Origin: Escherichia phage EC6
DNA: 64,000 nucleotides
Sequence record: JX560968
Strand: one strand, 5' to 3'
Positions within the stretch are counted from its first letter, which is position 1. Each line of letters begins with the position of its first letter. Shown in pieces: positions 3,554 to 46,580 of the stretch. The notes under the pieces were generated by a model that searched no databases, was not told the DNA's origin, and was given only the letters and a program-made list of their open reading frames with translations. The position numbers and the translations under genes are program-made.

Positions 3554-4127
3554 AAAAGGTCTAGTTAGAACCTTAGTGGATGTTATTGGTCACAGACTAG
3601 CTCGTGATAAAAATAATAGACCAAATGTAATTAGAGCTTACCCTTCTGATAACTCAAATGACAAAGGTTTAAAACCTGACCAGCCATTTATTACCGTATA
3701 TTGTCAAGACGCTGCAACACCTTATGGTTGGGTTCTTGATAAGTTTGTTGAGGATGATGTAGTTTGCTACAGAATTGCTTTTCAGATTCCAGTATTAATT
3801 ACGGTAAATGGTAAAGGTGCTCACAGTATTATGCTTGAGCTTAAACAACGATTAGAGATGAGTTCAGTCAGAGATTTAATTCTTGAAGAGACAGGAGCTA
3901 CAGTTTTAGACACTGGAGCTATCCCAAATGACTACACTTATCTTAATACAGATTTCGAAAATTCTGCACCTCTTGTTGTAACTCTTGTAAAAAATTCAGT
4001 CCTGAAAGATGAACGTGGAAGTATTATTGAGCGTGTCATTGTTGATGGTGAATTAGTTTACGAAGAAGGACAAGAGCCACCAGAATATACTATCCATCTA
4101 GATGTAGACTCCAAAGGGGTAAAATAA
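3528..4127 (+). CDS. hypothetical tail completion/terminator-like protein
   Basis: 199-aa ORF immediately upstream of sheath gene. Confidence 0.3.
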   Translation: MQLETAELEKGLVRTLVDVIGHRLARDKNNRPNVIRAYPSDNSNDKGLKPDQPFITVYCQDAATPYGWVLDKFVEDDVVCYRIAFQIPVLITVNGKGAHSIMLELKQRLEMSSVRDLILEETGATVLDTGAIPNDYTYLNTDFENSAPLVVTLVKNSVLKDERGSIIERVIVDGELVYEEGQEPPEYTIHLDVDSKGVK

Positions 4128-42616: not shown

Positions 42617-43813
42617 ATGAACAAAGTACAAATTATTAAAAAGAATGGCTCACTTGAAGAACCGGATATCAAAAAAGTTTTAGCAGCAGTCACAAAGTCG
42701 GCTAATAGGGTTGGTTATAAAGAGCTTCCACCAGATGTTACTCAAGCTCTTGAGTCAGCATTTATGAGGATTCTGGTAAAATCTACTAAACAGAATAATT
42801 TGCTAATCTCGGTAAATGATATCCACAGTATTGTTGAGGGTGCTTTGGCAGAAGTCAATCATGAGATTTATGAGTCTTACTCAACATATAGAAATTACCG
42901 TAAAGAGGTTGCTCAAAATTGGGATGAGCTTTACCAAAAGACTAAAGACACACTCTTCTTAGGTGACCGTGAAAACGCTAACTTTGACAGTAGTTTAATT
43001 TCTACAAAAGGTTCAATTATTCGTGGTTACCTGACTAAAGAAATCTTTAAACAGTACCATTTAACACCAGAGGAACTTGAAGCCATTGAAAAAGGGTTTA
43101 TCTATATTCATGATTTAAGAGACCTGATTTTTGGTGGTATCAACTGTTGCCTGTTTGACATTGGTAAAGTGCTGAAAGGTGGCTTTGAAATGTCTGGCAT
43201 TGAATACTGTGAACCAAAGTCTGTACTGTCAGCTTTACAGGTTATTGGTGATGTAGTTCTTTCAGCAACTGCACAGCAATTTGGTGGCTTTACTTTAGCA
43301 GAGATTGATAAGGTACTTGTACCGTATGCTAAGAAGTCTCTACGTTACCATGCTGAAAAAGCAACAGCTTATGGTATTCCTAAAGAACATTACCACAACT
43401 ATGTCATGGAGCAGCTACAGATTGAATTAACTCAAGGTTTTCAGTCTCTTGAAATGAAGCTCAATACCGTACCTTGTAGCCGTGGTGATTTTGCATTCAC
43501 AACTTTAACATTTGGTTTACTTGACCCAGACATGTCTAATGAAGACAACCGATTACAATACATGATTGCAAGTACCCTCCTAGATGTTCGTATGAATGGA
43601 CAAGGTAAGAGCAAGAAGCCTGTTGTATTTCCTAAACTGGTTTATATTTATGACCAGAAGAGACACGATGAGAATATCTGTCAAGGACACCTGTACAGTA
43701 AAGCCATTGAGTGTTGCTCTAAAGCAATGTATCCAGATTTCTTAAGTGTATCTGGTCATGGTGCTGTAGCAGAGGCTTTTGAGCGTTCTGGTAAGGTTAT
43801 TTCACCGATGGGT
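42617..43813 (+). CDS. nrdD: anaerobic ribonucleoside-triphosphate reductase, exon 1
   Basis: N-terminal ATP-cone (IIKKNGSLEEPDIKKV); ORF ends ...ISPMG where intron begins with UAA. Confidence 0.75.
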
Positions 43814-44129
43814 TAACAAGCTCTATAGCTCATCTAAAACGTGCCTAAACAGGGAAACTCTACAGATGTAGACAATCCTGTGCTAAATGATGTATGATGT
43901 AAGAAACTATACAACATAGGAGTCTTACATGCCAAATAACTTCGAATATGAGTTTGAATACATCTAAATGCCGAACGACTAACCGTGATGAATGTAGCGG
44001 TGTAGGGTCAAGCGACTCGAAATGGTACGCTACTTAGAAATAAGTAGAAGATATAGTCTGGACTTACTGGCGACAGTAAGCAGCTTGAATAAAGCGGGGT
44101 AAGCTTAGCGAACTTACCTGAACAACAAG
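43814..44129 (+). mobile_element. ORF-less group I intron (about 316 nt) in nrdD
   Basis: Starts UAACAAGCUC right after exon AUGGGU (P1 with intron GCUCAU at 43828-43833); core resembles T4 td-type introns (CUAAACAGGGAAACUCUACAGAUGUAGACAAUCCUGUGCUAAAU; GUAGGGUCAAGCGACUCGAAA; GAUAUAGUCUGG); ends ...CUGAACAACAAG; exon 2 resumes in frame. Confidence 0.7.
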
Positions 44130-45077
44130 TGTAGAGCATTTTTATCACCATACCATAACGAATATGGCGAAGAGTTTTATGTAGGTCGTGCTAACATCGG
44201 TGCTGTTTCTTTGAACTTACCAATGATTTACCAGTATTCTAAAGAGAATGGTTTAGATTTCTGGAAGGAGCTTGATAAGTACCTAGAGATGATTCGCAGC
44301 TTCCACAAGAAACGCTACGAAATGATTGCTAACATGCCAGCAAGTTCTAACCCTCTGGCATTCACACAAGGTGGTCTGTACAAAGGGACTAAGAAACCTA
44401 CTGACAAGGTTGGTTGGGATATCGTGAAGTCCTTCACAGCTTCTTTTGGGGTTACTGCGCTTGATGAACTATCTGTTCTTGCTGAAGGTAAACGACTTCA
44501 TGAAGTTGGAAGTTCTAGTTTTGCATACGATGTTCTGGCATACATTAACATGAAAACTGAAGAGTTTAAGAATGAAGATGGCTTCCTGTATGCAGTATAT
44601 GGCACTCCAGCAGAGTCATTGTGTGGAACTCAGCTAAAACAGTTCAGAGATATGTTTGGCGTTATCAAAGGCGTTTCTGATAAGGAATATTTTACAAACA
44701 GTTTCCATATGAATGTTGCAGCAGATATCTCACCATTTGAGAAGCAGGACTTAGAAGAGCCATTCTTCCATATCTGTAGAGGCGGCAGAATCCAGTATGT
44801 GAGGGTAGCTAACCCAGAAAACTTACCAGCACTTAAAAGTTGTATTACAAGAGGGATGTTGAAAGGCTTTTATCAGGGACTTAACTTTGACTTAGCAATC
44901 TGCGAACATTGTGGCAACAGGCCAAAGGCTGATGTTGAAGAATGTGAGGTTTGCCATTCACATGACATCTCTGTGATTAACAGAGTGTGTGGATATCTTG
45001 GGTGGACTAAGATTAAAGGTGAATCCCGAATGAATGATGCAAAAATTGCTGAGATTCGTGATAGGGTTTCTATGTAA
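44130..45077 (+). CDS. nrdD: anaerobic ribonucleoside-triphosphate reductase, exon 2
   Basis: Begins CRAFLSPYHNEYGEEFYVGRANIGAVSLNLP; C-terminal zinc ribbon CEHCG...CEVCH and glycyl-radical motif RVCGYLG; spliced product about 714 aa. Confidence 0.75.
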   Translation, partial: CRAFLSPYHNEYGEEFYVGRANIGAVSLNLPMIYQYSKENGLDFWKELDKYLEMIRSFHKKRYEMIANMPASSNPLAFTQGGLYKGTKKPTDKVGWDIVKSFTASFGVTALDELSVLAEGKRLHEVGSSSFAYDVLAYINMKTEEFKNEDGFLYAVYGTPAESLCGTQLKQFRDMFGVIKGVSDKEYFTNSFHMNVAADISPFEKQDLEEPFFHICRGGRIQYVRVANPENLPALKSCITRGMLKGFYQGLNFDLAICEHCGNRPKADVEECEVCHSHDISVINRVCGYLGWTKIKGESRMNDAKIAEIRDRVSM

Positions 45078-45857: not shown

Positions 45858-46342
45858 ATGAATTACATGGAGATTAGACCATTTGACACAGCTAATGGTG
45901 AAGGGGTTCGTGTAAGCCTCTTCGTAGCTGGCTGCAAACATCACTGTGAAGGCTGCTTTAACAGGGAGTCTTGGAAATTTAATGCTGGTAAAGAGTTTAC
46001 TTATGCAAACCTCTATGGCATCATCAAGTTAATGGATGATAATGCTATCAGTGGGCTGTCAATACTTGGTGGGGAGCCTCTGGATGATAGAAACATTCAA
46101 GACGTTACCAATATATGTAAACGTATTAAAACTGTTTACCCAGAAAAATCTATATGGCTTTGGACAGGTTTTCAGTTACACGAAAAATCCACCTCGATGT
46201 GATGAAATATGTTGACGTGGTGATTGATGGTAAGTATGATTCTTCTAAACCAACAGTTAAACCTTATCGTGGTTCTGATAACCAAAACCTCTGGAGAAAA
46301 GAGTATGGATGGCAAGGTGATTGTCAATGGCGAGCAGAATGA
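45858..46342 (+). CDS. nrdG: anaerobic ribonucleotide reductase activating protein (radical SAM), frame interrupted at A5 run 46184-46188
   Basis: N-terminal half has CKHHCEGC (CxxxCxxC) and IWLWTGFQLHE; -1 frame continues KIHLDVMKYVDVVIDGKYD...RGSDNQNLW, matching NrdG C-terminus. Confidence 0.65.
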
Positions 46343-46580
46343 TTATTCTGGTAAGTGGACTTACGACATTAACAAGTTAGATGCTTGGATGATTTATACG
46401 AGAGAAAAATTTGGTGAACGTTCATTATGTGCTCTTGCAACGATGGTGAAGAACGTTACCTTTGTCATAAACGAGTCAGATAAGTTTGGAGACTTCTACA
46501 GGATTCAAAACATCAGAGAAGGTATAACTCCAATCGGTATCACTGAAGAAGAACTTCATAAGTTCTGTATTAAACTTTAA
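46305..46580 (+). CDS. hypothetical protein
   Basis: ATG 46305 with GGAG RBS; 91 aa. Confidence 0.3.
   Translation: MDGKVIVNGEQNDYSGKWTYDINKLDAWMIYTREKFGERSLCALATMVKNVTFVINESDKFGDFYRIQNIREGITPIGITEEELHKFCIKL

Follow-up and report, generated by a model that had tools for sequence, protein, structure and literature searches.

A predicted self-splicing group I intron of the T4 td/sunY type, with its HNH endonuclease gene deleted, in nrdD of the Felix O1-like Escherichia phage EC6

Positions 43814-44129 of the window (the 64,000-nucleotide stretch of Escherichia phage EC6, record JX560968, that was analysed) hold what is, with a probability of about 0.93, an intact group I intron of the T4 td/sunY type, predicted to be self-splicing and interrupting the nrdD gene of this Felix O1-like myovirus of the genus Felixounavirus. 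A preliminary description of the DNA had proposed an ORF-less T4 td/nrdD-type group I intron with boundaries at 43814 and 44129, and this proposal is upheld by five independent lines of support: a match to a group I covariance model above its gathering score, intron-less alleles with the identical junction, gap-free alignment of the spliced protein to a solved NrdD, a full set of helices with compensatory changes, and sequence likeness to the td and T4-type nrdD introns. The element also forms a P1 helix with a U·G pair at the splice site, ends in an omega G accompanied by a P10 helix, and covaries in its core. Its membership of subgroup IA is indicated by the helices P7.1 and P7.2 between P7 and the 3′ strand of P3, and by the P9.1/P9.2 extension. 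Absent from the preliminary description were the origin of the element by deletion from an HNH-bearing intron, the existing annotation of that intron in at least one relative, and the difference between its insertion site and that of the T4 nrdD intron. The gene is organized as follows.

42617..43813, + strand: nrdD exon 1, 399 codons, with the ATP-cone and the N-terminal half of NrdD (from the ORF list and from Pfam on the spliced product)
43814..44129, + strand: group I intron, 316 nt, td/sunY-like, IA-type with P7.1/P7.2 and without P2; matches RF00028 and is absent from intron-less alleles
44130..45077, + strand: nrdD exon 2, 315 codons and a stop; its first codon is Cys400

Exon boundaries and the spliced product

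Exon 1 ends, as had been claimed, in the residues ...ISPMG, its last codon GGT (43811-43813) being followed immediately by an in-frame TAA (43814-43816). The intron thus opens with an in-frame UAA and closes with G44129, the omega G, and the end point of exon 1 is the same as the junction in Felix O1. The claim that the next 316 nt contain no ORF also stands, since stops occur in all six frames and the longest remnant is a stub of 12 codons.

Joining 43813 to 44130 (...CCGAUGGGU/UGUAGAGCA..., where a slash, here and below, marks a junction) yields a single open frame of 714 codons, with the insertion placed between Gly399 and Cys400 (PMG/CR). Exon 2 resumes in frame at 44130 with CRAFLSPYH..., in agreement with the preliminary description, and the 714-aa product has the length of Felix O1 NrdD. 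Both exons are open and full length in EC6. Pfam matches of the spliced product are strong for NRDD (E 2e-114) and for the ATP-cone (E 7e-12), and marginal for Gly_radical (21.8 bits for a cut-off of 22.2); exon 2 contains the RVCGYLG glycyl-radical motif and a Cys-rich CxxC...CxxC segment that had been read earlier as a zinc ribbon.

Alignment of the spliced protein to homologs, a check that had been suggested at the outset, shows that NrdD of EC6 is colinear over its whole length with class III reductases of known structure, ...PMGCRAFL... lying opposite ...PMGCRSFL... of PDB 9d3x with zero gap at the junction. The intron-less alleles share this junction. Cys400 is aligned with Cys290 of T4-like NrdD. 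In class III reductases this residue is the finger-loop cysteine that forms the thiyl radical. The earliest in-frame starts in exon 2 are codon 28 (TTG at 44211) and codon 32 (ATG at 44223), neither of which is preceded by a Shine-Dalgarno sequence, and unspliced exon 2 therefore cannot encode Cys400.

Guide sequence, helices and covariation

Comparison with Rfam, also among the checks proposed, gives a match to the group I intron family RF00028 at 53.6 bits (E 8.6e-11), which exceeds the family's gathering score of 50 and covers the full model (1-253). The alignment runs from 43756 to 44080, with P1 misplaced into the exon and its end at P9, the boundaries of the intron being fixed by other evidence. 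The margin of just 3.6 bits is explained by the model's poor handling of P1, of the absence of P2 and of the long insert in P6. Two ORF-less relatives, in phages BPSELC-1 and RPN213, reach 56.1 and 60.4 bits, respectively. The ORF-bearing introns of BPS17L1 and Vibrio phage 355E48.1 and the td intron of RB3 have no RF00028 match at the gathering threshold, because large P6 inserts lower the score, and this result is not evidence against their being introns. The minimum free energy (MFE) of the EC6 intron sequence alone corresponds to z = -3.89 relative to shuffled sequences. RF00028 is the only Rfam family that reaches its gathering score in the 64-kb window. A tRNA scan of the same window found no tRNA genes, and Felix O1-like genomes reportedly carry about 22-25 tRNAs, which places the tRNA cluster outside the window.

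The elements of the predicted RNA structure are listed below.

43807..43813, + strand: 5′ strand of P1 (exon GAUGGGU), 7 bp with 43828-43834, no mismatch
43820..43834, + strand: internal guide sequence, composed of GCUCUAUA (43820-27, P10 strand) followed by GCUCAUC (43828-34, P1 strand)
43840-45, + strand: 5′ strand of P3; then P4, 43849-54 with 43876-81, and the P5 hairpin, 43859-63 with 43868-72 (from the helix table and RNAalifold)
43882..43971, + strand: P6, 43882-83 with 43970-71, and P6a, 43889-95 with 43958-64, the loop of which formerly housed the HNH gene
43977..44058, + strand: catalytic core, with P7, 43977-81 with 44054-58, pseudoknotted with P3
43982-85 with 43998-44001, + strand: P7.1; 44005-09 with 44014-18: P7.2 (core helices)
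44024-29, + strand: 3′ strand of P3; then P8, 44030-35 with 44042-47, and J8/7, AAGAUA (core)
44063..44129, + strand: peripheral 3′ domain, with P9, 44063-69 with 44074-80, and P9.1, 44083-86 with 44092-95
44098-103 with 44113-18, + strand: P9.2, then the tail UGAACAACAAG ending in the omega G (within 44063..44129)

The guide sequence is one continuous strand that pairs with both exons. The P1 pairing noticed earlier between exon AUGGGU and intron GCUCAU is confirmed and in fact spans 7 bp, with the wobble pair U43813·G43828 at the splice site. Contiguous with it, P10 is formed over 8 bp by GCUCUAUA and the first eight bases of exon 2, UGUAGAGC (44130-37). An equivalent of P1 is kept in six homologous introns, with covariation in Aeromonas phage phiA047 (GGCU with GGUC) and in T4 nrdD (GAGU with GCUC). 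In the Vibrio phage homolog, a different 8-bp P10 (GAUUGGCA with UGCCGAUC) fits the exon 2 of that phage, which constitutes full covariation.

Helices were located by script, with td/sunY as the guide, in EC6 and in the introns of RPN213, phi92, phiA047, Vibrio phage 355E48.1, RB3 (td) and SP1 (nrdD). The helix table was hand-picked for each sequence because MAFFT alone misaligned the variable stems P8, P9.1 and P9.2, and RNAalifold, applied to a MAFFT alignment made without such guidance, served as a cross-check. Fourteen helices (P1, P10, P3-P6, P6a, P7-P7.2, P8 and P9-P9.2) occur in canonical order and with zero mismatches in EC6 and the six homologs. Nine of these (P3, P6a, P7.1, P7.2, P8, P9, P9.1, P9.2 and P10) differ in sequence across members yet stay complementary. 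For example, P7.1 (ACCG with CGGU) and P7.2 (GGGUC with GACUC) both covary in the family, with pairs such as GCUG with CAGC and GAAUAG with CUAUUC. The 3′ domain extends beyond the end of the Rfam model, yet it is homologous to the P9 to P9.2 region of td.

Of the 64 pairs that RNAalifold predicts, 36 show one or more double compensatory changes, and its fold includes P1, P3-P6a, P7.1, P7.2, P8, P9 and P9.2; the MFE fold of the single EC6 sequence recovers P10, P3-P6a, P7.1, P7.2, P8, P9, P9.1 and P9.2. P7 is absent from both nested folds because of its pseudoknot with P3. This helix (GACUA with UAGUC) and the joining strands are invariant across the seven members, and P7 therefore gives no covariation support.

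Given this structure, a conventional splicing mechanism is proposed. The guide sequence (43820-43834) would form P1, including the U43813·G pair, with the last bases of exon 1 and P10 with the first bases of exon 2, and an external guanosine bound in P7 would attack the 5′ splice site. The freed 3′-OH of exon 1 would then attack after the omega G44129, producing ligated exons and an mRNA for the 714-aa NrdD. The UAA at intron positions 1-3 would serve, like its counterpart in T4 td, to stop ribosomes at the splice site.

Relatives, loss of the endonuclease and distribution

Likeness to T4 introns had been inferred earlier from four quoted sequence blocks, each of which is indeed present once, at 43845-88, 44002-22, 44050-61 and 44096-124. 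An ungapped likeness to td holds for the second, third and fourth blocks (20/21, 11/12 and 25/29 positions), whereas the first is interrupted by an indel in the P5 loop. The broader claim of T4-type likeness is well founded, with about 71% identity to td in the 3′ half (over 160 nt) and 87.5% identity to the T4-type nrdD intron in parts. The td intron of T4 (the I-TevI intron, subgroup IA2) shares with the EC6 intron the P3-P9 core, P7.1/P7.2 and the P9-P9.1-P9.2 arrangement; the blocks GUAGGGUCAAG(C/U)GACUCGAAA and GAUAUAGUCUG are nearly identical in the two, and J3/4, J6/7, J8/7 and P7 of EC6 are identical to those of the functional td intron. P3, P6a, P8 and P9 differ in sequence between the two and stay complementary. 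Both introns place an in-frame UAA after ...GGGU, and in both the location for an ORF is the P6a loop. Unlike the EC6 intron, that of td lies in the thymidylate synthase gene, has a P2 hairpin and is associated with a GIY-YIG rather than an HNH endonuclease.

The T4 nrdD intron (sunY, with I-TevII), seen here in the T4-like phage SP1 (locus L010, 1488-2532), resembles the EC6 intron in its host gene and in its lack of P2. The guide is GCUCAUG in SP1 and GCUCAUC in EC6, and the respective targets are UAUGAGU and GAUGGGU. Over the 5′ part and the J6/7-P7-P7.1 segment, the T4-type nrdD intron and that of EC6 are up to 87.5-97.7% identical, whereas P7.2, P8 and P9.2 differ and the ORF of the T4-type intron is in the P9 region, not in P6a. 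The T4-type intron splits codon 180, equivalent to residue 280 of EC6 and 120 codons upstream of the EC6 site, and thus represents a separate insertion into the same gene. The nearly shared guide and target hint that a single intron lineage may have moved ectopically inside nrdD.

Much closer relatives are the HNH-bearing nrdD introns of the Felixounavirus phages BPS17L1, Mushroom, FSL SP-010, UAB_Phi87 and Bas63 (JohannRWettstein), which are the same element at the same site. These introns measure 742 nt, with a 154-aa HNH_3 protein encoded in P6a, and their RNA parts are 96.6-100% identical to EC6 by BLAST; a value of 76% from a global MAFFT alignment of the 316-nt EC6 intron with the 742-nt Bas63 intron is spurious, and the BLAST value of 96.6% was used. 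Homologous introns at the exact Gly/Cys boundary (SMG/CRS, YMG/CRS) occur in phi92 and nepoznato (Stephanstirmvirinae) and in Vibrio phage 355E48.1, which belong to different phage families. In P10 and P3 these introns covary with the exons that flank them, and the core segments that match EC6 are about 70-73% identical. The intron of phi92 (L013, 1391-1669) is ORF-less, and those of nepoznato (L012, 931-1700) and of the Vibrio phage carry an ORF in P6a.

Two side observations concern these comparisons. The annotation of nrdD in Vibrio phage 355E48.1 (L008, 1224-4184) consists of three fragments, of which the first two are separated by the homologous HNH-bearing intron; the second gap (about 3834-3950) may be another intron or a frameshift. 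In Aeromonas phage phiA047 (L011, 1422-1685), a family member of 264 nt with no ORF separates two CDSs annotated as 'hypothetical protein', and its exon 1 ends in ...QLMA and not at the nrdD motif.

The P6a loop of the EC6 intron retains the two ends of the endonuclease gene.

43918..43967, + strand: remnant of the HNH gene, with an AGGAG ribosome-binding site at 43918-22 and the stub ATG CCA/AAT AAC ... ATC TAA at 43929-67

Aligned with BPS17L1 (742-nt intron, 154-aa HNH ORF), the EC6 intron is short by 426 nt, or 142 codons, in frame, with the deletion junction between 43934 and 43935 and a 12-codon stub left behind. The same origin is seen in alignments to Mushroom and Bas63. The HNH ORF of the 742-nt relatives matches Pfam HNH_3 (E 2.6e-10), whereas no ORF longer than 12 codons, and hence no homing endonuclease, is encoded in the EC6 intron. 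The EC6 copy descends from a mobile intron and is not autonomously mobile. It derives from a mobile intron of 742 nt whose P6a loop encoded an HNH homing endonuclease of 154 aa, and the in-frame 426-nt deletion (codons 3-144) would have retained splicing and abolished its own homing.

This deletion is not the only one of its kind. RPN213 has a different and larger deletion, leaving an intron of 292 nt, and the homologous intron of phi92, judged against nepoznato, lost its ORF by an independent deletion with other end points (GGGGGUACUG/UUACG). The separate deletions in the EC6 form, RPN213 and phi92 establish that endonuclease loss has happened repeatedly. Among the 92 intron-bearing records, the HNH gene is kept in 61 and about 31 are ORF-less.

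These records come from a search with a 951-nt query around the intron, which matched 298 phage records, nearly all of them Felixounavirus, with identities reaching 97.7%. Of these 298 exon-matching records, 92 (about a third) carry the intron, and Felix O1 and some 200 others have an uninterrupted nrdD with exactly the same junction. The Felix O1 gene is an uninterrupted 2145 nt, and its match to the query measures 635 nt, which is 951 minus 316. The intron-less phages Felix O1, wV8, adrianh, warpig and Z31 read CC(N)ATGGGT/TG(Y)AGAGC at the site. A few matching records bear other host names: several named 'Campylobacter phage' (MG065664, MG065668 and similar) and 'Staphylococcus phage SA1' contain a Felixounavirus nrdD at 94-96% identity and are probably mixed or mislabelled assemblies.

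Horizontal spread of the intron is indicated by its presence/absence polymorphism, by a conservation exceeding that of the exons and by an exon tract linked to its presence. Most carriers have an intron that is 98.7-100% identical to that of EC6 (95.5-100% over all compared carriers) and an exon 1 that is 86-95% identical. Several compared phages share the ORF-less form at 98.7-99.7% identity; FGS030, for example, has the same deletion junction and a 99.7% identical intron next to an exon 1 that is 85.9% identical to that of EC6. The linked tract forms the start of exon 2.

44130..44189, + strand: intron-linked exon tract, about 60 nt, with almost entirely synonymous differences between intron-plus and intron-minus alleles

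From +1 to +60 of exon 2, intron-plus and intron-minus alleles diverge by 18-19%, compared with 3-5% in the neighbouring bins and 3-4% among intron-plus alleles. One change in the tract, TGT rather than TGC, completes P10. The tract is consistent with co-conversion during homing, with selection for an uncleavable target, or with both. The EC6 copy itself could spread only by ordinary recombination, or through an endonuclease supplied by a co-infecting phage. A more far-reaching scenario combines two proposals: that the 316-nt form may still be spreading among divergent Felixounaviruses, through the HNH endonuclease of co-infecting intron-bearing phages acting in trans or through co-conversion, and that the guide shared with the T4 nrdD intron could be the trace of an intron transposed ectopically inside nrdD, whether through reverse splicing or through illegitimate homing into AUG(G/A)GU. 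This scenario is speculative and rather unlikely.

Competing readings, annotation and significance

Two published papers on phages of the Felix O1 type speak of a 'split nrdD interrupted by a homing endonuclease' and do not use the word intron, and most GenBank records show two separate CDSs. Such descriptions would suit a split gene, in which a deleted endonuclease insertion has left two separately translated ORFs that assemble into an active enzyme, as in the precedent of the mobE-split NrdA of Aeromonas phage Aeh1. The insert of EC6 nevertheless has a complete group I core with covariation, and its edges match P1/P10 and the intron-less alleles to the nucleotide. Moreover, a separately translated C-terminal piece would lose Cys400 and finger-loop residues, there being no start before codon 28 and no Shine-Dalgarno sequence. 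A split gene is thus an extremely improbable explanation. Another reading accepts the intron and holds that it, or the whole nrdDG module, is decaying to a pseudogene, with no functional NrdD made. The deletion of the endonuclease gene could be seen in this light, as could the D1-2 record, which gives nrdD as a misc_feature 'similar to', and the state of nrdG. However, no helix of the EC6 intron contains a mismatch, its joining strands and P7 are those of functional td as noted above, both exons are open and full length, and several compared phages retain the ORF-less form at 98.7-99.7% identity.

The nrdG evidence can be read in two ways. This downstream activase gene (45858-46345) has an apparent -1 frameshift, with five A's at 46183-46187 in place of six in Felix O1, which results in a 114-aa ORF and a C-terminal piece in another frame. 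All 12 of the closest relatives listed span one base more than EC6 in this region. Loss of a single base in a homopolymer is a typical sequencing error, and the A5 run is most likely such an error, the alternative being a real inactivation of the NrdD activase. Should the frameshift prove genuine, nrdDG may be a decaying system in which splicing is under relaxed selection. Taken together with the state of the intron and exons, a dead intron or nrdD pseudogene is very improbable, and an intact intron predicted to self-splice is the preferred reading.

The HNH-bearing form of this element has already been recognised. The record of Bas63, from the BASEL collection, contains a joined nrdD CDS, so that the HNH form is annotated there as an intron, and the S5 table of the BASEL paper gives one intron for Bas63; the phi92 record annotates the homologous site as a 'spliced variant'. 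A literature search found no paper that calls the Felixounavirus insert a group I intron, describes its structure or tests its splicing. The EC6 copy is a useful finding that will not surprise a specialist, and it involves no new mechanism.

The annotation pattern was judged from the records inspected and from the feature names listed for matches, in which nrdD almost always appears, for both forms of the intron, as two CDSs or as a pseudogene-like feature. The records inspected mostly have two CDSs, and D1-2 has a misc_feature. The exon-2 CDS in such annotations starts at an arbitrary internal codon and drops the catalytic cysteine. Recognition of the intron replaces two 'ribonucleotide reductase' CDSs, or a pseudogene-like feature, by a single NrdD of 714 aa.

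At one and the same site, the Felixounavirus genomes present the three stages in the life cycle of a homing endonuclease, namely an empty site, an intron with an HNH gene and an intron from which the gene has been deleted, the last having arisen at least two independent times. Together with the intron-linked exon tract and the same-site introns in unrelated phage families, they constitute a natural system for the study of intron gain, endonuclease loss and trans-mobilisation.
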